Shown piece by piece: positions 19,736 to 61,857 of a stretch of 64,000 nucleotides of DNA (positions within the stretch are counted from its first letter, which is position 1; every line of letters starts with the position of its first letter). Source of the DNA: Eledone cirrhosa (lineage: Eukaryota). Below the pieces are notes generated by a model. That model searched no databases and was not told where the DNA came from. It was given only the letters and a program-made list of their open reading frames with translations. Made by a program: the position numbers and the translations under genes. The stretch spans positions 9,796,001-9,860,000 of the forward strand of contig OZ024766.1 in the NCBI GenBank assembly GCA_964016885.1. The letters run 5' to 3'.

Positions 19736-20553
19736 AGACAAATATATATATATATATATTGTTATACTTTGGGAGGGTCATGTTGCCAATAAGAAACACA
19801 CGCACCAGTTGCTTTCACTTCAATTTAATTTATTATATATTTATAAATTTACAAATTTATAAATTTCTGGTTGGTTGGTTCCACAACCAGATAGTTGTTT
19901 ATATATATATAGTCATAGTTCTTTCGTCACACACTCTGTGACCTCTTCAGTGACTGGGGATTTCTTTCTTCGTTTCTGTGCCTTTCCTTTCTTCTATCCT
20001 ACGCCATTTTGTTGACATGACCCTCCCAAAGTATAACAATATCGGTTTCAACACACGATTTCAGATAAAGAATCTTGCTAAACAAATTCAGAAACGATAT
20101 ATATATATATACTGTAGTAAAAGTTTGGTTGAAATACCAAGGGTTAGAGCACTCAGTCCTAAGGATGAGCCGAATATAGTTGTAACTAATCATATATATA
20201 TATATATATATATTGTTATACTTGGGGAGGGTCATATTGTTGTAATATTGCCAGAAATAATAACAAAACACATTCACTGTTTGGTTGGTTTTCGCTTCTG
20301 TATCTTTTATATCTATCTATATATATATATATATATAGTTCGTTTCTGAATTTGTTTAGCAAGATTCTTTATCTGAAATCGTGTGTTGAAACCGATATTG
20401 TTATACTTTGGGAGGGTCATGTTGCCAATAAGAAACACACGCACCAGTTGCTTTCACTTCAATTTAATTTAATATATATTTATAAATTTACAAATTTATA
20501 AATTTCTGGTTGGTTGGTTGGTTCCACAACCAGATAGTTGTTTATATATATAT

Positions 20554-20598
20554 AGTCATAGTTCTTTCGTCACACACTCTGTGACCTCTTCAGTGACT
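20554..20598 (-). ncRNA. Minimal type I hammerhead-like ribozyme
   Basis: Minus strand agtca-ctgaaga-g-gtcaca gagtg tgtgac-gaaa-gaac-ta-tgact; copies at 19911-19955(-) and 53542-53585(+). Confidence 0.62.
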
Positions 20599-21253
20599 GG
20601 GGATTTCTTTCTTCGTTTCTGTGCCTTTCCTTTCTTTTATCCTACGCCATTTTGTTTGTGTGTGGGTTGCGTGCTCAGTTTGCGCATGCGCCACATCCGG
20701 TGCGTGTGTTTCTTATTGGCAACATGACCCTCCCAAAGTATAACAATATATATATAGTATTTTACAGGTTTTTATTGTATGTAAACTTCCCCCTTTATAT
20801 TTGTCCCCTTCTTTTGTGACCCTGTGGCTAATAAAGATGAATCAAAACATCAAATATGTTTAGAATTTTGTGTTTTGGTATATATACAATATACCGTGTT
20901 TCTTTTACAATATAAGGCTCCTTCTATCTATATATAAACACACATATATTTATATAAAGGAACGATCGACTTTCGTCAAATCGGACCGAGGGAACAATGT
21001 TTCCGTTGGTCTTTCCAATTGCTAATACTATCTATCGGTCGCAACGTGAAATAAAGTGTCTTGCTCAAGGACATAACGCATCGCCTGGTCCAGGAATCTA
21101 ACTCACAACCTTACGATTGCGAATCCAATTCCCTAACCACTCAGCCACACGCCTTCACGTGTATATATATATATACACACACATATATATACCTATAATG
21201 TAAACTGCTAAATGTTCAAGTGAACTGGAATATATTTGTTTTAACCTTTATAT

Positions 21254-21298
21254 GCTCTGATGACACCAGAGTTCTATCTTGATGAAACAACTGTAAGC
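21254..21298 (+). ncRNA. Degenerate minimal hammerhead ribozyme
   Basis: gct-ctgatga-caccaga gttcta tcttgat-gaaac aact gta-agc. Confidence 0.55.
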
Positions 21299-21616
21299 TA
21301 TTAATTATTTTCAACACAATTTGCTTGTTATCTATATTGTATTCCTGCTCTGTAATATATCTGATATTTTACATTGAGCTACTTTCTTACTGATAATCAA
21401 GTAACATATAATATTCTCCTTATCTTATATATATTTTTATATATAAAACAGAGTGGGATTGGTCGAGTGCAAGACCTTTCCCCACTTAAAAACCTTCAAA
21501 GCTCAGGCATTGTTTGTTCAAGATATGTTACAGGTTTGTGTGGCTGGCCGTAGTCTAAAAGTGCACCAAACTCTATAATCTGACAAGCAATTGCAATACT
21601 CTTAGCAGAGTTTGCA

Positions 21617-29045: not shown

Positions 29046-30106
29046 GGTGAACCTACAGTAACTGGACGTTAAGATTCCTATATAATGCCCAGTGCCCCTC
29101 GTTGCTGTCTTTTGCTCCGTTGTTCAACCCCTTCCTTTACATTTTCTTTAACATTGTAACATTAAAGGAATATATCTTTCATTATATCATACTTTATAGT
29201 GTTATCTAAGCATTTATAATGTTATTTATGTATATATTTAAAACATGTTATGTTATTCTACTGTAAATTTATTTATATGCTCTGTTTATATTTTCATTCT
29301 GAAAGAATTGCAAACGATTTGTATTGTTATTTATACAACTATGAATAAAATATTTGCTATAAATGTGTGTGTGTGTGAGTCCCAGGGTCAACCAGGGGTA
29401 AGACCATTAACTGAGGTACTTTCCTGATGATTTCCTTCGAATGAAACAGTTCTATATTAAATACATTTGATATATATACATGGTAGAGAGGTCTATATAT
29501 AAGCGAACTTAGATATAAAAATGTTTTCGTCAATCTTGATTATACACCAGGATTTTCACACATTTAATTTTAATATATAAATATATATATATATACATAC
29601 ATTATACCCAGGATTTTCAGACATTTAATTTTAATATATAAATATATATACATACATTATAATGTATGTATATATATTATAAACAGAGCATATAAATAAA
29701 TTTACAGTAGAATAACATAACATGTTTTAAATATATACATAAATAACATTATAAATGCTTAGATAACACTATAAAGGATGATATAATGAAAGATATATTC
29801 CTTTAATGTTACAATATTATAGAAAATGTAGAAGAAGGGGTTGAACAACAGAGCAAAAGACAGCAAATATATATATATATATATGATGGTGATTTCTCCC
29901 GAATGAAACAGTTCTAGTCCTGTAGAAGCCATTTCTATATTAAATATATATATATTTTTATATAGCTGCCATTATATATATATTTAATATACAAATGTAT
30001 GTATATATTTATATACAGAGACAGAGAGAGAAACACGCCCAAATGCAAGTTTGTTTTTTGGCGGGAAATGCATTTTCACTTTTGATGGAGAAGGAAGCTC
30101 GTTTAA

Positions 30107-34207: not shown

Positions 34208-34266
<59 letters not shown>

Positions 34267-34385
34267 ACAAATTTAATATAGAAATGGCGTCTACAGGACT
34301 AAAACTGTTTCATTCCAAGGAAATCACCAGGAACGTTCGTTTGCACACACGCATATATACACAAACACACATATGAATGTGTATA

Positions 34386-47200: not shown

Positions 47201-50120
47201 GTCTCAGGCACTTGGTGTTGGTATTGCAACGGTCTCACGCTGTCATCATCATCACTGTTTTACGTCCGTTCTTCCACGCTAGCATGGGTTAGACGGGTTG
47301 TCCAGTCGGCTGACCATGCCTTGCTCATACGGCAACTGATTCTGGCTTGATTTCTACAGCTGGATGCCCTTCCTAACACCAACCTCATTTACAGTGAGTG
47401 CTGGGTGCTTTTTTTTTTCCGTGGCGCCTCCACGACCACTTTACTGTGTGGGCTGGGTGCTTTGTTTACCATGGCACCTCCATGACCACTTTACAGTGTG
47501 GGCTGGGTGCTTTTTTTGCCGTGGTACCTCCACGACCACTTTATAGTGTGGGCTGGGTGCTTTTTTTCCGTGGCGCCTACACGACCACTTTACAGTGAGG
47601 GCTGGATGCTTTTATGCCGTGGCACCTCTACGACCACTTTACAGTGTGGGCTGGGTGCTTTTTAGCCGTGGCCCCTACACGTCCACTTTATAGTGTGGGC
47701 TGGGTGCTTTTTCCGTGGCGCCTACACGACCACTTTACAGTGTGGGCTGGGTGCTTTTTCCGTGGCGCCTCCACGACCACTTTACTGTGTGGGCTGGGTG
47801 CTTTTTTTACCGTGGCACCTCCACGACCACTTTACAGTGTGGGCTGGGTGCTTTTTTTGCCGTGGCACCTCCACGACCACTTTACAGTGTGGGCTGGGTG
47901 CTTTTTCCGTGGTCCCTACACGTCCACTTTATAGTGTGGGCTGGGTGCTTTTTTTCCGTGGCGCCTACACGACCACTTTACAGTGAGGGCTGGATGCTTT
48001 TATGCCGTGGCACCTCTACGACCACTTTACAGTGTGGGCTGGGTGCTTTTTAGCCGTGGCCCCTACACGTCCACTTTATAGTGTGGGCTGGGTGTTTTTT
48101 CCGTGTTTTTTCCGTGTTTTTTGTATTTTCACAGTAAAGGCTTTACCTCACATAATATCTCACATAACAGGGGTTCAAGTGATCACACAGTACAAAGGGG
48201 GCTGCCAATATCAACAGAGCCTGGGGAGAGGGGTCCACAAGTGATCACACAGTACAAAGGGGGCTGCCAATATCAACAGAGCCTGGGGAGAGGGGTCCAC
48301 AAGTGATCACACAGTACAAAGGGGGCTGCCAATATCAACAGAGCCTGGGGAGAGGGGTCCACAAGTGATCACACAGTACGAAGGGGGCTGCCAATATCAA
48401 CAGAGCCTGGGGAGAGGGGTCCACAAGTGACCACACAGTACAAAGGGGGCTGCCAATATCAACAGAGCCTGGGGAGAGGGGTCCACAAGTGATCACACAG
48501 TACAAAGGGGGCTGCCAATATCAACAGAGCCTGGGGAGAGGGGTCCACAAGTGATCACACAGTACGAAGGGGGTTTCAGGAATTCCGTAGTGGTGATGAG
48601 AGCCTTGAAGACGAAGGTGGAGGACAGTGATGCAGTCTTGACAATGAACAATTGAAAGCATTTGTTGAACAAAACCCACGTCAAAATGTCAGAGAAATGT
48701 CTCAGGCACTTGGTGTTGGTATTGCAACGGTCTCACGCTGTCATCATCATCACTGTTTTACGTCCGTTCTTCCACGCTAGCATGGGTTAGACGGGTTGTC
48801 CAGTCGGCTGACCATGCCTTGCTCATACGGCAACTGATTCTGGCTTGATTTCTACAGCTGGATGCCCTTCCTAACACCAACCTCATTTACAGTGAGTGCT
48901 GGGTGCTTTTTTTTTTCCGTGGCGCCTCCACGACCACTTTACTGTGTGGGCTGGGTGCTTTGTTTACCATGGCACCTCCATGACCACTTTACAGTGTGGG
49001 CTGGGTGCTTTTTTTGCCGTGGTACCTCCACGACCACTTTATAGTGTGGGCTGGGTGCTTTTTTTCCGTGGCGCCTACACGACCACTTTACAGTGAGGGC
49101 TGGATGCTTTTATGCCGTGGCACCTCTACGACCACTTTACAGTGTGGGCTGGGTGCTTTTTAGCCGTGGCCCCTACACGTCCACTTTATAGTGTGGGCTG
49201 GGTGCTTTTTCCGTGGCGCCTACACGACCACTTTACAGTGTGGGCTGGGTGCTTTTTCCGTGGCGCCTCCACGACCACTTTACTGTGTGGGCTGGGTGCT
49301 TTTTTTACCGTGGCACCTCCACGACCACTTTACAGTGTGGGCTGGGTGCTTTTTTTGCCGTGGCACCTCCACGACCACTTTACAGTGTGGGCTGGGTGCT
49401 TTTTCCGTGGTCCCTACACGTCCACTTTATAGTGTGGGCTGGGTGCTTTTTTTCCGTGGCGCCTACACGACCACTTTACAGTGAGGGCTGGATGCTTTTA
49501 TGCCGTGGCACCTCTACGACCACTTTACAGTGTGGGCTGGGTGCTTTTTAGCCGTGGCCCCTACACGTCCACTTTATAGTGTGGGCTGGGTGTTTTTTCC
49601 GTGGCGCCTACACGACCACTTTACAGTGTGGGCTGGGTGCTTTTTCCGTGGCGCCTACACGACCACTTTACAGTGTGCGCTGGGTGCTTTTTTACCGTGG
49701 CCCCTACACGTCCACTTTACAGTGTGGGCTGGGTGCTTTTTTTGCCATGGCACCTCCACGACCACTTTACAGTGTGGGCTGGGTGCTTTTTTTGCCGTGG
49801 CACCTCCATGACCACTTTACAGTGTGGGCTGGGTGCTTTTTTTGCCGTGGCACCTCCACAACCACTTTACAGTGGAATGATAGGGACCCCAGTCCCTATC
49901 ATCTCATTTCTACAGCTGAGTAAACTGGAGCAATGTGAAATAAAGTGTCTTGCTCAAGGAAACAACACATCACCCGGTCTGAGAATTGAACTCACAACCT
50001 TTCGATTGCAAGGCCAATGCTCTAACCACTAAGCCATGTGCCTCCAGATGCTGTGCTGAATAGGACCTGTCCCACCCTGGCAAGCAGGGAAGATGATGAT
50101 ATATGTGTGTGTATGTATGT

Positions 50121-50167
<47 letters not shown>

Positions 50168-52562
50168 AATGTATATATAGAGAATATATGTATATAAAAG
50201 AAAATGTTAGGTATTGTTGACAATTTTCAAATATTTGACACTTTTATCTATATTTTGTCAGAAATATGGACAGCTGACAGATTTGAGGAGCAAATGTCAA
50301 TCTTATCAAGGTTAGTAGTTGTTGTTGTTACTGTTGGTGGGGGGTGGGGGACGGGGTGTTGGTGGGGGTGGTGGATGGGGTGTTGGTGGGGGTGGAGTGT
50401 TATCACTGTTGTTGGTGGGGGTGTTAGTGGTGGGGGTGTTAGTGGTTGTTGGTGGTAGTGGTGGGGGTGTTATCATCACTGTTGTTGGTGGGGGTGGTGG
50501 ACGGGGTGTTGGTGGGGGTGGAGTGTTATCACTGTTGTTGGTGGGGGTGTTAGTGGTGGGGGTGTTATCATCACTGTTGTTGGTGGGGGTGGTGGACGGG
50601 GTGTTGGTGGGGGTGGAGTGTTATCACTGTTGTTGGTGGGGGTGTTAGTGGTTGTTGGTGGTAGTGGTGGGGGTGTTATCATCACTGTTGTTGGTGGGGG
50701 TGGTGGACGGGGTGTTAGTGGTTGTTGCTGGTGGTGGCGGTGGGGGTGTTAGTGGCTGTTGGTGGTGGTGGGGGTGGTGTTATCATCACTGTTGGTGGTG
50801 GTGGGGGTGTTGCTACTGTTGTTGTTAGTAGTGTTCATGTTAACTACATTAAGGGTACATACGTCTTAGGAATACTCAGCCACTGTACAAGTAATTCAAG
50901 GAGCTATTCTTGTCACACAATGTGTCATGCTGAATCTCCCTGAGAACTATTACACCAGGGATATCAGCCATGCGGCCCATGTGGCTCTTTACATGTGGGA
51001 TATCACACATGTGGCCCCCACAAAGGTTTTTACAGCGCAAGCGTGTTTTATCTTCGTAATATAAAATAAAAAAAATTAATTGTAATGTGCAGTTAGGTGT
51101 CATGTGTGACCCTCAGACAACACATGTGTGACCCATGTGGCCCTCAGACAACACATGTGGCACTCAGACAACACATGTGTGACCCATGTGGCCCTCAGAC
51201 AACACATGTGTGACACATGTGGCCTTCAGACAACACATGTGTGACATGTGGCCCTCAGACAACACATGTCTAACATGTGGCACGCGGACAACACACGTGT
51301 GACACATGTGGCACTCAGACAACACGTGTGTGGCACTCAGACAACACCTGTGTGACCCTCAAACAACACATGTGGCACTCAGACAACACCTGTGTGACCC
51401 TCAGACAACACATGTGGCACTCAGACAACACCTGTGTGACCCTCAGACAACACATGTGGCACTCAGACAACACCTGTGTGACCCTCAGACAATACATGTG
51501 GCCCTCAGATAACACCTGTGTGACCCATGTTACCCTCAGTTTGAAATGCCTACCTCACATGGTCTGAATAGCACTACTACTACTACTACCACCACCACTA
51601 CCACACTGACTTACCTCCACCACCACCACAACCACCACAACACTAACTTACCACCACCACTACCACACTAACTTACCTCCACCACCACCACCACAACACT
51701 AACTTACCACCACCACCACCACCACACTAACTTACCACCACCACCACCACCACCACAACACTAACTTACAACCACCACCACCACAACACTAACTTACCAC
51801 CACCACCACCACAACACTAACTTACTCCCACACCACCACCACCACCACCACAACACTAACTTACAACCACCACCACCACAACACTAACTTACCTCCACCA
51901 CCACCACCACACTGACTTACCACCACCACTACCACACTAACATACCACCACCACCACCACAACACTAACTTACCACCACCACCACCACCACACTAACTTA
52001 CCCCCACACCACCACCACCACCACCACAACACTAACTTACCACCACCACTACACTAACTTACCTCCACCACCACCACAACACTAACTTACCTCCACCACC
52101 ACCACCACACTAACTTACCCCCCCACACCACCACCACCACCACCACACTAACTTACCCTCACACCACCACCACAACACTAACTTACCTCCACCACCACCA
52201 CAACACTAACTTACCACCACCACCACTACCACACTAACTTACCTCCACCACCACAACACTAACTTACCCCCACACCACCACCACCACCACCACAACACTA
52301 ACTTACCCCCACACCACCACCACCACCACATCTAATACATTATTCCTCTTCTCTTCTGTATTCCACTACTACCACTACAACTGTGACCTCTCACCTCCTC
52401 CTCCAAAGGTCACTTTATAGTGCTATGTGGCTACAACAGAACCAAACAACAGATCTTCTACAAGAACACATCTTTTAGACATGGTAAGTGATACACTTCT
52501 TATATATATGTATATATATATGTGTGTGTGTGTGTGCGTGCGTATATATGTATATACGTGTA

Positions 52563-52606
<44 letters not shown>

Positions 52607-52825
52607 TACGTTATTCCGGGTTGAATCGGAGGTAACAACAGTAAGTAAGGTACTCAATACATTGCAGAGCATAAAAGTTTTAATATAGATGAGATTCTAC
52701 AGGACTAGAACTGTTTCATTCTTTAGAAATCATCAGGAATCCCTTATGATTTCTAATCAGAGATTCCTGATGATTTCTAAAGAATGAAACTGTTCTAGTC
52801 CTGTAGAATCTCATCTATATTAAAA

Positions 52826-52902
<77 letters not shown>

Positions 52903-53291
52903 ATTTGTTGGGATTCCAACAAACTTAAAAGTTTATAACTGATATAGAGCACTCAACAGTGAAATGGAGTGAATATTCAATGATATTAAATAAATGGAAA
53001 CTATATTTATAAAACCATAATTATTTTATTATATCTATTTCAAGGGCAACCAAGGCAGTTTTGGTGCGCTTTCATCAGATAAAATACAAAATTTGTTTTA
53101 TAAATAGTGACATAACCGTGGAAAACAACCTTGACGGTTGAAAATTCATTGAAAATTCACTATCCAGCGAATTTTCCACGGTTATGTCACTATATATAAA
53201 ACAAATTTTGTATTTTATCTGATGAAAGCGCACCAAGATGGCCTTGATTGCCCTTGAAATATATATAATAAAATAATTATGGTTTATATAT

Positions 53292-53336
<45 letters not shown>

Positions 53337-54947
53337 CAACATCACAACTTACAATTAAGGACAAAATGAAAACACACACATAGAACAACCAACCAGTAAC
53401 ATGTAAATAAACAAATATAAACACACACAGACACCCGGATGTAACACATGCGCAAACTAAGCACACAACATACACAAAAACAAGATGGCGTAGAACAGAA
53501 CAAAGGAGAGGCACAAAAACAAAGAAAAGAAAAGAATCCCCAGTCACTGAAGAGGTCACAGAATGTGTGACGAAAGAACTTTGACAATATATGAACAACC
53601 GTCTGGTTGTGGAACCAACCGACCAACCGGAAATTTATAAATTCTTAAATTTATAATAAATTGAAGTTAAAGCAACTGGTGCGTGTGTTTCTTATTGGCA
53701 ACATGACCCTCCCAAAGTATAATAATATCGGTTTCAACACACGTTTTCAGATAAAGAATCTTGCTAAACAAATTCAGAAACCATATATATATATATACAT
53801 ACATACATACATACATACATACGGTGGCTGCCAACTCGTTTTCGAGTACGGCCACTACTTTATATCCATGTAGGAAAACCCCTACCAATGGGCTGAACGA
53901 GTGTGATTTTTAGTCCAGCCAGCGACTTGAAAACTCTGGTACAAACACTACACTTGTGACAATTATTGACACATAGTGCTGGGCCCATGGTACCATGTGA
54001 CGACAAGTGCAGAGAGATCTCCAAATATAAAGCAATGCCTGTGCCGTGAAGCTTTTATAGTGAGCAAAAGCACTGCACAAAGCCAGCCCACTCTCTTAAC
54101 CAAGATGATATTTACCAAAAAGAAGAACAAGTCAACATCATTGGATACCATCAGGGTTACAGGTGTTATATCAGAGTTTTCCTTCTCCTAGAATTCTGCC
54201 TTGACAAAGGCTAAGGGGTCATCTCTCCCAGTGATTTTGGATGGCCATTGACTCTTAAGAGCTCCTTTGCCCTTTGACATACATATATACATACATACAT
54301 ATATACATACATACATACATACATATATATATACATGGTGGCTGCCAACTCGTTTTCGAGTACGGCCACTACTTTATATCCATGTAGGAGAACCCCTACC
54401 GATGCGCTGAACGAATGTGACTTTTTAGTCCAGTCAGCGACTTGAAAACTCTGGTACAAAGACTACACTTGTGACCATTATTGACACATAGTGCAGGGCC
54501 CATGGTACCATGTGATGACAAGTGCAGAGAGATCTCCAGATATAAAGCAATGCCTGTGCTGTGAAGCTTTTATAGTGAGCAAAGGCACTGCACAAAGCCA
54601 GTCCCACTCTCTTAACCAAGATGATATTTACCAAAAAGAAGAACAAGTCAACATCATTGGATACCATCAGGGTTGCAGGTGTTATATCAGAGTTTTCCTT
54701 CTCCTAGAATTCTGCCTTGACAAAGGCTAAGGGGTCATCTCTCCCAGTGATTTTGGATGGCTATTGACTCTTAAGAGCTCCTTTGCGCTTTGATACATAC
54801 ATATATATATACATACATATATATATACATACATATATATATACATACATATATATATACATACATATATATATACATACATATATATATACATACATAT
54901 ATATATACATACATATATATATATACATACATATATATATATACATA

Positions 54948-55013
<66 letters not shown>

Positions 55014-55489
55014 CATAAATATATATATATACATATATATATATACATATATATATATACATATATATATATACATATATATACATACATATATACATAC
55101 ATACATATATATATACATACATATATATATACATACATATATATATACATATATATATATACATATATATATATACATATATATATATACATATATATAT
55201 ATACATATATATACATACATATATATATACATATATATATACATACATATATATATACATACATATATATATACATACATATATATATACATACATATAT
55301 ATATACATACATATATATATACATACATATATATATATATACATACATATATATATACATACATATATATATACATACATATATATATATATACATACAT
55401 ATATATATACATACATATATATATACATACATATATATATACATACATATATATATATACATACATATATATATATATATACATACATA

Positions 55490-55530
<41 letters not shown>

Positions 55531-55587
55531 ATACATACATATATATATATATACATATATATATATGCATACATATATATATATATA

Positions 55588-55641
<54 letters not shown>

Positions 55642-55648
55642 TACATAC

Positions 55649-55681
<33 letters not shown>

Positions 55682-55690
55682 TATACATAC

Positions 55691-55723
<33 letters not shown>

Positions 55724-55765
55724 TATACATACATATATATATGTATATATATATACATACATATA

Positions 55766-55833
<68 letters not shown>

Positions 55834-55838
55834 CATAC

Positions 55839-55873
<35 letters not shown>

Positions 55874-55876
55874 TAC

Positions 55877-55975
<99 letters not shown>

Positions 55976-56857
55976 TGAAAATAGACCAAGAAACAGGAAT
56001 GTCCTCATCAGTAGTCTGCTGATTATCATTGGTATGTCTTCCCATTAAAGACTAGATACCTAAAATCAGTGCGAGCGATAACTAAATTTAGTTATCGGGA
56101 CAGAGTGAATTGGAAGGGGAAAGTGTTTAATGAAGAGAAATACCACTGATAATCAGCAGACTACTGATGATGGACAATCCTGCTTCTAGGTCTATTTTTA
56201 TTCATATGTTCACATTCGCAACAACGCAGCACACCATTTTTTCATTCATATATATATTAGGTCGTCAAGTATGAAATTTGTAGAAATTTGGTTTTTTTTT
56301 CAAAGTTTCTACAAATTTCATACTTGACGACCCAATATGTGTGTGTGTTGTATATATGTATGTGTGTGTGTGTATGTGTGTTGTATATATGTGTGTGTAT
56401 ATATGTGTATGTATATATGTATGTGTATATATGTGTTTGTGTGTATATATTGTGGAATCACAACTAATTCTGTTTCTCTGACAAATTCTCTCTCTCTCTC
56501 TCACACTAATTATCTCTCTCTCCCTCTCACACTAATTCTGTCCCTCTCTGTCACTAATTCTCTCTCCCTCTCCCTAATTATCTCTCTCTCCCTCTCACAC
56601 TAATTCTCTGTCCCTCTCTCCCTCACACTAATTATCTCTCTCTCTCTCCCTCACACTAATTCTGTCCCTCTCTCACTAATTCTCTCTCCCTCTCACACTA
56701 ATTCTCTGTCCCTCTCTCTCTCTCCCCCTCACACTAATTATCTCTCTCTCTCCCTCTCTCCCCAGACCAGGTCAGTGTCTGTAGTTGGAAGATATTTGAT
56801 GCAGCCAGGAAATGTTACGGTACAGATGAAGATATCCTCTTCGTTTACGGATCTTGA
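30107..56857 (+). CDS. GUCD1: GUCD1 (protein GUCD1/C22orf13-like, papain-like C39-related fold), spliced gene: join(30107-30122,36637-36718,37560-37625,38679-38778,43246-43337,44537-44636,50262-50310,52409-52483,56766-56857), ~223 aa
   Basis: Hand-spliced exons have GT/AG borders and consistent phases (1,2,2,0,2,0,1,1). Product: [108 protein letters not shown], matching the GUCD1 motifs WDCGLAC.MVL, SIWTIDLAYL, YQGHFIVL.GY and [13 protein letters not shown]. Confidence 0.92.
30265..31812 (-). mobile_element. RTE LINE (same family as 14135-16448) with an inverted 5' part
   Basis: 30270-31291 carries the RT C-half on minus with a (TAGA)n tail; 31292-31812 carries the RT N-half on plus ([20 protein letters not shown]). 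Confidence 0.92.
31840..32130 (+). mobile_element. RTE LINE 3' fragment
   Basis: [19 protein letters not shown]. Confidence 0.75.
33815..34050 (-). mobile_element. Helitron Pif1-helicase C-terminal fragment (pseudogenised)
   Basis: [59 protein letters not shown], with a frameshift and a stop. Confidence 0.85.
34426..34757 (+). mobile_element. tRNA-derived SINE with an RTE-like 3' tail
   Basis: A box tggcttagtgg, B box gttcaattc; tail cccttgcaagcagggaaaaagcggacgtaaaatga; other copies at 23610-23955(-), 35229-35568(+), 49870-50045(-), 61858-62208(-). Confidence 0.88.
35229..35568 (+). mobile_element. tRNA-derived SINE (same family)
   Basis: Near-identical to 34426-34757; (ATG)n tail. Confidence 0.88.
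35698..36591. repeat. 43-bp SINE-derived minisatellite, ~21 copies
   Basis: aaagtaccagtaatacactggggtaatagctggccttgtgtca; single-copy parent in SINEs at 28250-28300 and 44150-44195. Confidence 0.95.
36637..36718 (+). CDS. GUCD1: GUCD1 exon ([27 protein letters not shown])
   Basis: tttctccttacag| acceptor, |gtaagt donor, WDCGLAC motif. Confidence 0.93.
36725..37500. repeat. Intronic (GGT)n/(CAC)n low-complexity tract
   Basis: Lies between GUCD1 exons; similar tracts at 50320-50830 and 51575-52330. Confidence 0.9.
37560..37625 (+). CDS. GUCD1: GUCD1 exon ([22 protein letters not shown])
   Basis: gcag| acceptor, |gtaagg donor, phase 2-2, length fits the segment between conserved blocks. Confidence 0.85.
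37790..38110 (-). mobile_element. Degraded 3' fragment of the RTE family seen at 14135 and 30270
   Basis: ggtaaaattcccgagatcc...cagctaacctcagtctcctctgtgtcac is shared with those copies. Confidence 0.8.
38390..38569. mobile_element. piggyBac-type MITE
   Basis: ttaa-ccctatagcatt ... aatgctaaaggg-ttaa: TTAA target site and CCC/GGG termini. Confidence 0.75.
38679..38778 (+). CDS. GUCD1: GUCD1 exon ([33 protein letters not shown])
   Basis: tatttcag| acceptor, |gtaagg donor; aligns with SIWTIDLAYL..TLGVDKGY. Confidence 0.93.
39040..42900. repeat. 48/49-bp SINE-derived minisatellite, ~80 copies, opposite orientation, in a GUCD1 intron
   Basis: acaaaaagcacccagtccacactgtaaagtggtcatgtaggtgtcacg; runs directly into the SINE 3' body at ~42900. 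Confidence 0.96.
43246..43337 (+). CDS. GUCD1: GUCD1 exon ([31 protein letters not shown])
   Basis: ccccag| acceptor, |gtgagt donor; aligns with FY..HFDTEETRVNQLF. Confidence 0.92.
44025..44210 (+). mobile_element. Second SINE family
   Basis: tggcagtatcggtagag..gagttcaaatcccgccgaggttaactttgcctttcatccttacggggtcgataaaataaagtaccag; copies at 12550-12720(-), 17040-17215(-), 28190-28312(+), 33145-33256(-), 35595-35740(+). Confidence 0.8.
44537..44636 (+). CDS. GUCD1: GUCD1 exon ([33 protein letters not shown])
   Basis: tctttcttctctacag| acceptor, |gtgagg donor; aligns with VS..DI..HL..G..AIVLV. Confidence 0.9.
44848..45412. repeat. 72-bp form of the 60/72-bp minisatellite, ~8 copies
   Basis: Same unit as 1430-4835. 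Confidence 0.95.
45490..47242 (+). mobile_element. Mariner transposase 5' fragment interrupted by a 62-bp array
   Basis: [41 protein letters not shown], then after the array [47 protein letters not shown] (mariner HTH domains). Confidence 0.88.
45779..47075. repeat. 62-bp tandem repeat, ~21 copies, derived from mariner transposase CDS
   Basis: gctgccaatatcaacagagcctggggagaggggtccacaagtgatcacacagtacaaagggg; a further ~6 copies at 48170-48572. Confidence 0.96.
46680..49600. repeat. 1498-bp tandem segmental duplication
   Basis: Identical ORFs are offset by 1498 (46995/48493, 47364/48862, 47715/49213). Confidence 0.92.
50262..50310 (+). CDS. GUCD1: GUCD1 exon ([17 protein letters not shown])
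   Basis: ttttgtcag| acceptor, |gttagt donor, phase 0-1; supplies YQG of the YQGHF motif. Confidence 0.85.
52409..52483 (+). CDS. GUCD1: GUCD1 exon ([25 protein letters not shown])
   Basis: ctcctccaaag| acceptor, |gtaagt donor; HFIVL.GY motif. Confidence 0.93.
52691..52742 (-). ncRNA. Type I hammerhead ribozyme (intact core)
   Basis: Minus strand GAUUC-CUGAUGA-UUUC UAAA GAAU-GAA-ACAG UUCUAGUC CUGU-A^-GAAUC: stems I and III pair, short stem II, GUA cleavage triplet. Confidence 0.75.
52760..52812 (+). ncRNA. Type I hammerhead ribozyme (one stem III mismatch)
   Basis: gagattc-ctgatga-tttctaaagaat-gaaactgttctagtcctgta-gaatctc. Confidence 0.65.
53022..53086 (-). ncRNA. Minimal type I hammerhead ribozyme (inverted partner)
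   Basis: Minus strand tattttat-ctgatga-aagcgca..tgccctt-gaaa-tagata-ta-ataaaata. Confidence 0.68.
53211..53275 (+). ncRNA. Minimal type I hammerhead ribozyme
   Basis: tattttat-ctgatga-aagcgca..tgccctt-gaaa-tatata-ta-ataaaata: 8-bp stem I, palindromic minimal stem III. Confidence 0.72.
53820..54795 (-). repeat. Two tandem copies (~515-bp period) of an element separated by (TACA)n
   Basis: ggtggctgccaactcg...gagctcctttg is duplicated; contains ggagaaggaaaactctga(-), which I recall from RTE 5' UTRs. Confidence 0.75.
54795..55972. repeat. (TA)n/(TACA)n microsatellite
   Basis: Direct inspection; similar tracts at 22945-23480, 28690-29045 and 62625-64000. Confidence 0.97.
56766..56857 (+). CDS. 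GUCD1: GUCD1 last coding exon ([30 protein letters not shown])
   Basis: Long CT tract + cccag| acceptor; GTDEDILFV motif; TGA at 56855-56857. Confidence 0.94.
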
Positions 56858-61462: not shown

Positions 61463-61751
61463 CTAAGGGAAGTAACTCTGAGTCAGTCATAGTTTGTAGT
61501 GCTGGCGATGCTATGTTGGCATCAAACTTATGATGCCTACCTAAGTTATTTACCAATTCAAGAAAGCATTTAAATATATATATATATATATATGTGTGTG
61601 TTAGGTCATTCCGAAGGAAGAGCAAAGGAAAAAAGAGTGCTCTATGTATAGAACAGAGCTATTTAATTAGAAAGTGAACAACACAAAATATAACTACTCC
61701 ATTACCAAAGGTTTCAGGATCCCAGACGATATTAATACACGATGATAACAT

Positions 61752-61819
61752 CTCTGTCTGATGAACGATCCAGACATATATTAATATTGTCTGGGATCCA
61801 GAAACTTTTGGTAATGGAG
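61752..61819 (+). ncRNA. Minimal type I hammerhead ribozyme
   Basis: ctctgt-ctgatga-ac gatccagaca..tgtctgggatc ca-gaaac ttttg gta-atggag. Confidence 0.65.
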
Positions 61820-61857
61820 TACTTATATTTTGTGTTGTCCACTTTCTAATTATATAT

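Follow-up and report, generated by a model that had tools for sequence, protein, structure and literature searches.

Hammerhead-bearing palindromes in a GUCD1 intron are probably head-to-head ends of two abundant Hydra-type Penelope-like elements

The analysed window is a 64-kb stretch of DNA in which a profile search with PF09778 gave five exon-sized matches on the plus strand. Based on these matches and on translation, two palindromes (A and B) and a third element (C) lie in the last coding intron of GUCD1 (52484-56765), in agreement with the intronic position given in a first-pass annotation of the sequence. An 856-nt contig from run X4, of unrecorded kind, matched the region only at 52406-52483, which is the pattern expected of a spliced mRNA. 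Four read-run sets were matched to the region in all; their contigs, also of unrecorded kind, are mostly repeat copies and are uninformative on cleavage. The features of the locus are as follows.

52409..52483, plus strand: penultimate coding exon of GUCD1 (PF09778 exon match, translation and boundaries; donor GT at 52484)
52484..56765, plus strand: last coding intron of GUCD1, 4282 nt, containing A, B and C (PF09778, translation and boundaries)
52576..52604, no strand: (TA)n target flank to the left of A (sequence)
52606..52741, minus strand: tail arm of A, a family A pseudo-LTR (pLTR) ending at the tail site, core at 52736, predicted cut after 52698
52742..52760, no strand: junction of A, with extra G(s) at both arm starts and a 15-nt re-copy of the core region with 1 mismatch
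52761..52826, plus strand: short arm of A, core at 52767, 3-bp stem II opened by U.U, predicted cut after 52805
52827..52898, no strand: (TC)n(TA)n spacer from A to B (sequence)
52899..53147, minus strand: tail arm of B, a family B pLTR, core at 53078, predicted cut after 53030
53148..53156, no strand: filler at the junction of B
53157..53293, plus strand: short arm of B, core at 53219, predicted cut after 53267, two small deletions
53336..53783, plus strand: C, a single 5'-truncated pLTR with a tail, Neptune-type by motif, core at 53547, predicted cut after 53581
56766..56857, plus strand: last coding exon of GUCD1, up to the stop codon (PF09778, translation)

Other repeats are common in the neighborhood. 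The GUCD1 intron preceding the 52409 exon holds long minisatellite arrays at 48800-49900 and 51087-52330, one of which adjoins a tRNA-like SINE, and another dispersed repeat forms a 516-bp tandem pair in direct orientation (53821-54793, 96% alike) in the same intron as A, B and C.

Both inverted repeats previously described at the locus are present, as is the copy of a third family, C. The arms of palindrome A (52677-52742 and 52761-52826) give a best local alignment of 72 nt with 3 mismatches, and those of palindrome B (53012-53124 and 53173-53285) are well matched over about 111 nt. These arms stand, but the elements extend further than the repeats originally delimited, to 52606-52826 for A and 52899-53293 for B, because the left arm of each carries an additional tail of ~70-110 nt. 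As had been claimed, A and B have no DNA similarity to each other, although the proteins of their parent (master) elements are 39% identical. The short, sense arm of A has a T at 52791 where the family has an A, and this non-family base breaks stem III. In B, a G in loop III of the tail arm weakens the dimer palindrome, and the short arm begins at the inferred transcription start, an A at 53159. C has no antisense partner arm at this locus.

Each of the four arms carries a type I hammerhead core with stems, at 52736 and 53078 on the minus strand and at 52767 and 53219 on the plus strand, again consistent with the initial description; with C, the predicted plus-strand cuts fall after 52805, 53267 and 53581. 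A, B and C follow the minimal type I pattern of CUGAnGA, GAAA and UH with stems I and II. In the core of C an extra nucleotide follows A9, stems I, II and III measure 4, 6 and 1 bp, and the triplet is CUU, which is a subfamily trait. Across the 64-kb window the core pattern occurs 9 times against 2.07 expected, a count reached in 0/100 shuffles. The Rfam search proposed as a check gave little recognition: the only hammerhead hit was Hammerhead_HH9 at 52758-52820 (15.1 bits, E 2.1), far from the gathering score of 52. Rfam microRNA matches were discarded, as they reflect nothing but long hairpins.

Family A hammerheads have a U.U at 10.1-11.1, and in other families among the fetched loci U.U-opened stem II and palindromic stem III recur with different sequences. 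Family A is too uniform for an analysis of stem covariation. Among 18 hand-picked B variants, 96.2% of stem cells are paired; three pairs of stem II show two-sided changes, and the changes in stem I are all wobbles. Judging from such comparisons of sequence, the hammerhead motif appears to be selected in the parent elements. In the fetched flanks, several other families of minimal hammerhead turned up by chance, their palindromic stem III being CTAG, CGCG, GTAC or TGCGCA. Within the window, a lone CTGATGA...GAAA core of another family lies at 21257-21300, where a stem I of at least 4 bp was not found, and degraded family A hammerhead fragments lie at 29421-29454, 29887-29944 and 34264-34333.

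Minimal hammerheads were expected to mark the pLTRs of Penelope-like elements (PLEs), and this is borne out here by the parents: each arm matches the 5' pLTR of a full-length element with reverse transcriptase (RT) and GIY-YIG. The family A master (L340) comprises the hammerhead with its tail, a 758-aa open frame, a 3' UTR and a short-ended A hammerhead, and the A tail arm in the window aligns to it over 136 nt with 4 mismatches. At its position (G000:C1:14203500-14213000, 7783-1752 on the minus strand) the frame is uninterrupted, the 3' UTR measures ~3.6 kb and both pLTRs are present; it looks like an intact full-length Hydra-type PLE. The family B master (L203) is organised in the same way, its 743-aa frame following directly after the hammerhead and tail. 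Of 61 sampled family A insertions, 3 continue through the tail into the ORF, and a fourth does so via its inverted arm. At many family B loci the end of the ORF is followed, in sense, by a 1.4 kb UTR and then the hammerhead. The B endonuclease region gave 57,669 first-look candidates, 150 of which were scored. The pLTRs flank the ORF in both direct and inverted orientation. A non-autonomous family A, suggested by 20 long copies with no adjoining upstream ORF, was rejected because copies run through the tail into the ORF. In many of the long A copies (L112-L133) the 5' end follows (TA)n or (TG)n with a variable G-run, corresponding to the microsatellite-rich 3' UTR of the master.

The RT and C-terminal GIY-YIG motifs of the A and B frames were recognised by eye. 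In Pfam, two long B frames had no domain match and only a related fragment hit RVT_1, weakly (E 0.056); the family A protein had no match in PDB. Both frames carry the motifs IRWRAF/LRWRAF, SDKT, CNCLNKEAC/CNCRIKSNC and CDLC..CMH. In the accessible part of PMC8557442, the Hydra clade is marked by an RWK-like motif and DKT, a CxCx5C linker, CxxC/CxH in the endonuclease (EN) and a (TA)n target. On this basis A and B are classed as Hydra-type PLE families, the assignment being by motif and by comparison with reference proteins by eye. A Neptune placement of A and B was dropped, as their motifs fit Hydra. Family C has an RT with YVDD, a CIDKKCITC linker (CX4CxxC), YIGETARS and His residues, and its ORF ends directly before the C pLTR; by motif it is Neptune/Nematis-type, and we call it Neptune-type although either clade fits. 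None of the three families is a retrozyme, because there are no tandem units of 150-450 bp and each family is tied to an RT-EN ORF. At one further locus (L164, G000:C4:4367000-4374000), an A arm lies head-to-head with an inverted B-like ORF fragment with no microsatellite between them, possibly through a cross-family template switch or a nested insertion.

The families are widely dispersed. Exact matching genome-wide found 16,398 copies of a family A 31-mer and 1,487 copies of a family B 33-mer, with 0 matches for the reversed-pattern control in each case, and 14,889 copies of a family C motif. Searched as queries across the 3.0-Gb genome, the whole A cassette and the whole B cassette each gave more than 2,000 first-look candidates. 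Of the first 100 listed matches to the A motif, 48 make up 24 divergent pairs within 400 nt. We sampled 61 A and 47 B insertions at consecutive exact-match sites from the start of contig C1, so that one exact arm was required; the 47 B insertions include one triplicated locus. A partner arm was counted if within 60-80 nt, and longer palindromes were therefore scored as single. By this count 34/61 A and 26/47 B insertions are palindromic. Copies sit in (TA)n, where target-site duplications are unreadable, and their 3' end is one of two fixed sites. The centres of the palindromes differ between copies and consist of microhomology or of short stretches of an arm copied a second time. Seven of the 61 A insertions have a B or C copy within 800 bp, and a cluster such as that in the TA-rich GUCD1 intron is thus ordinary.

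Additional copies were observed elsewhere. Two more C pLTR copies occur in the window at 19756-20749, with minus-strand cores at 19950 and 20593; the DNA separating them contains short and tail fragments in inverted orientation. At 61670-61848 there is a ~180-nt inverted repeat with CTGATGA near its centre; relatives were found in 3 of 419 fetched loci, in (TA)n adjoining other PLE arms, and it is likely a fourth family of PLE stubs. At G000:C12:17.02-17.48 Mb, eight near-identical A copies spaced by ~60-95 kb form a large segmental tandem array.

Several features of these copies are already published, namely opposite-strand dual hammerheads, inverted pLTRs and one-sided tails. The following comparisons refer to the accessible portions of the cited papers. 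EN+ PLE units (PMC3846280; Craig et al. 2021, PMC8557442) share with A and B the head-to-head inverted, 5'-truncated pLTR with a tail on one arm, the (TA)n target and masters arranged as pLTR-ORF-pLTR. In the copies here, by contrast, each of the two arms is a stub of 66-250 nt and the tail is longer (about 70-90 nt versus 30-40 published), and the pairing of short with tail arms and the 5' wall, both described below, have been counted. Hydra-1_Obim of the Hydra clade (PMC8557442) has the same RWR, DKT, CxCx5C, CxxC and CxH motifs around conserved E and N, a (TA)n insertion, a hammerhead and a protein that is similar by eye, whereas the A and B masters have clear pLTRs, a very high copy number and long 3' UTRs (1.4 and about 3.6 kb) that are rich in AT or in microsatellites. 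The PLEs of Schistosoma (Cervera and De la Pena 2014, PMC4209133) carry opposite-strand dual minimal hammerheads 100-700 bp apart, which were read as truncated PLEs, with a palindromic helix III; in contrast to these, family A has a U.U-opened stem II and a longer helix III, and stem II of B opens with A-U. The U.U-opened stem II of family A also occurs in axolotl HHR_Amex2 (PMC7229834). Non-LTR retrozymes (PMC7229834; bioRxiv 10.64898/2026.07.22.740005) have type I hammerheads related to those of PLE pLTRs, but the stubs here are inverted and ORF-linked and lack a tandem or circle-forming unit.

The composition of the palindromes is highly regular. One short arm is paired with one tail arm in 30/30 classifiable A pairs (4 of 34 were left out because their ends are damaged or run into the ORF), in 24/26 B pairs and in 10/11 C pairs, the C loci having been picked in part as divergent pairs. 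A loop II subfamily mark is common to both arms in 24 of 25 readable A pairs, compared to 9.8 after shuffling, and in 9 B pairs arm divergence is 3.1% inside one copy as against 6.4% from copy to copy. Gene conversion within the palindrome could be an alternative source of such shared marks. In B, the 5' end of the short arm lies 10 nt or more beyond that of the tail arm in 15 of 22 independent pairs, and in six of these 15 the arms hardly overlap; staggered arms are found in only 4/30 A pairs. A copy made by fold-back is confined to its template, yet the B arms are staggered, and this implies two primings.

The 5' ends of the arms are limited by a wall. In family A, 52 of 68 arm ends fall at -8..+3, and the wall is an initiator-like A exactly 30 nt downstream of TATAAATA, a TATA box. 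Only 2 of 52 B arm ends lie beyond -81. An extra G occurs at the B wall in 24/38 junctions, including 5 of the 8 that are joined straight to (TA)n; the 38 are what is left of 45 genome-wide matches with a non-C before the wall once 4 mutated read-through copies and 3 duplicates have been removed. Not all B-like copies start at -79: in six longer ones the first position is 25-40 nt upstream of the core. When an RT copies a cap, an extra G can be left in the cDNA. We infer that the extra G at the B wall is a copied cap, and the partner arm could be the source of some of these Gs. The wall is likely a capped transcription start.

We propose that the element protein would cut both target strands and that two cDNAs would be primed on one capped sense RNA, one at the short site and one at the tail site. 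Both cDNAs would extend toward the 5' end of the RNA and would be joined head-to-head via microhomology or short templated fillers. In its complete form, the proposal involves one RNP with one RT start site per strand, a capped sense RNA, a second cDNA made by displacement on the intact RNA, and stubs that mask themselves in either direction because of the head-to-head joining; we give this complete form an even chance. In vitro work on Poseidon PAc (Frangieh et al. 2024, PMC11167929), in the part accessible, agrees in that the tail is set by two fixed sites at which the RT starts, that cutting and extension take place on both target strands, and that hammerhead cleavage is dispensable. It describes no strand difference in start site, whereas the sites here are almost always paired, on opposite strands. 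Our literature search, with most subscription papers outside it, found no statement on the paired use of both start sites or on a cap-derived G in PLEs.

The same PLE origin could also produce the palindromes if the inverted arm arose by fold-back, or antisense self-priming, of a single strand instead of by two primings, as proposed for head-to-head pLTRs by Arkhipova 2013 in the accessible part of PMC3846280. Nested pairs (7/22 in B and most in A) and common arm marks fit such an origin. However, the copy should then lie inside its template, and the 15/22 B pairs are staggered or non-overlapping; short-ended, ORF-bearing arms often have a tailed partner; and the fixed 5' wall with its extra G fits a capped sense template. 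We therefore regard fold-back as improbable, though it keeps a real share of the weight, and the evidence points more to twin priming on a single sense RNA than to antisense self-priming as published. A variant in which the cDNA folds back on its own stem I complement was rejected, as the arms would lack the core and the palindromes are otherwise.

With regard to activity in GUCD1, it had been suggested that the antisense arms mask the sense ribozymes, and folding predictions agree: the hammerhead fold has a predicted probability below 1e-42 in whole or nascent cassettes, with the hairpin preferred by about 55-82 kcal/mol in ensemble energy. Even single arms have predicted active-fold probabilities of 3e-4 to 3e-8. 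Because the arms diverge, the antisense arm is met first on either strand, so that masking is predicted from the head-to-head joining itself. In read-through RNA the antisense arm would precede the sense arm and is predicted to sequester it by pairing; the likely product is therefore a 70-115 bp dsRNA hairpin inside the spliced-out intron, with no cut. The A stub is likely not transcribed alone, because the upstream TATA box is absent. Three sense-strand ribozymes were counted within 1.1 kb of the donor. The three cores are there, but stem III of A is broken, the T at 52791 (A in the family) weakening the predicted dimer at stem III from -14.8 to -5.6 kcal/mol, and C has no masking partner. 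In the accessible part of PMC4209133, minimal hammerheads of metazoan PLEs show undetectable cleavage as monomers and weak cleavage as dimers. Overall, we conclude with a probability of about 0.88 that A and B are head-to-head ends of two abundant Hydra-type PLEs inserted in (TA)n, whose hammerheads are predicted to be masked and are likely inert in GUCD1 pre-mRNA.

The idea of a built-in self-silencing arrangement relevant to GUCD1 is not supported, since the head-to-head form is generic for both families (34/61 and 26/47 sampled insertions). A stronger version would have the sense ribozymes co-opted as a switch, cutting GUCD1 pre-mRNA and tuning its output unless masked by the antisense arms. 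The three sense cores within 1.1 kb of the donor, the predicted masking and the conserved intronic hammerheads of amniotes (PMC6155905, accessible part) would suit a switch. Against this, the arrangement is generic, the copies match young, abundant repeats, the sense arm of A lacks stem III pairing, the predicted hairpin is too stable for switching, minimal PLE hammerheads cleave poorly in the accessible part of PMC4209133, and the clustering with B or C seen at 7/61 A insertions is ordinary. We consider a switch very unlikely. Just as doubtful is a non-autonomous palindromic family, MITE-like or retrozyme-like, amplified as a unit: the best whole-cassette matches are indeed near-identical palindromes at many places, but centres and arm lengths vary from copy to copy, single arms and ORF-linked copies are common, the A stubs have no promoter and tandem units are absent. 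A chance motif or an assembly fold-back artefact, conceivable in an AT-rich and repeat-rich region, is close to negligible given that the arms differ by several substitutions and indels, the core motif is enriched in the window and the stems of the B subfamilies stay paired (96% of cells, with 3 two-sided pairs).

Thus, A and B are PLE stubs of the ordinary head-to-head kind and show no sign of regulating GUCD1, and as a feature of this gene they are of little importance, being one case among many PLE stubs. Their value lies in the data they provide on the origin of inverted pLTRs and tails in PLEs, which is listed as open in the accessible part of PMC8557442. What is added is mechanistic, namely counts that speak for paired priming on a single capped sense RNA. 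The pairing of short with tail arms, the common marks, the stagger and the extra 5' G lead to a specific model that is testable in a PAc-type in vitro assay, for which the intact-looking Hydra-type master of family A is a usable substrate. If the model is true, twin priming would replace antisense self-priming as the explanation of inverted pLTRs, and thousands of hammerhead-bearing copies could persist as long dsRNA hairpins within introns. Should the host be a cephalopod, these thousands of hairpins would be candidate substrates for RNA editing.
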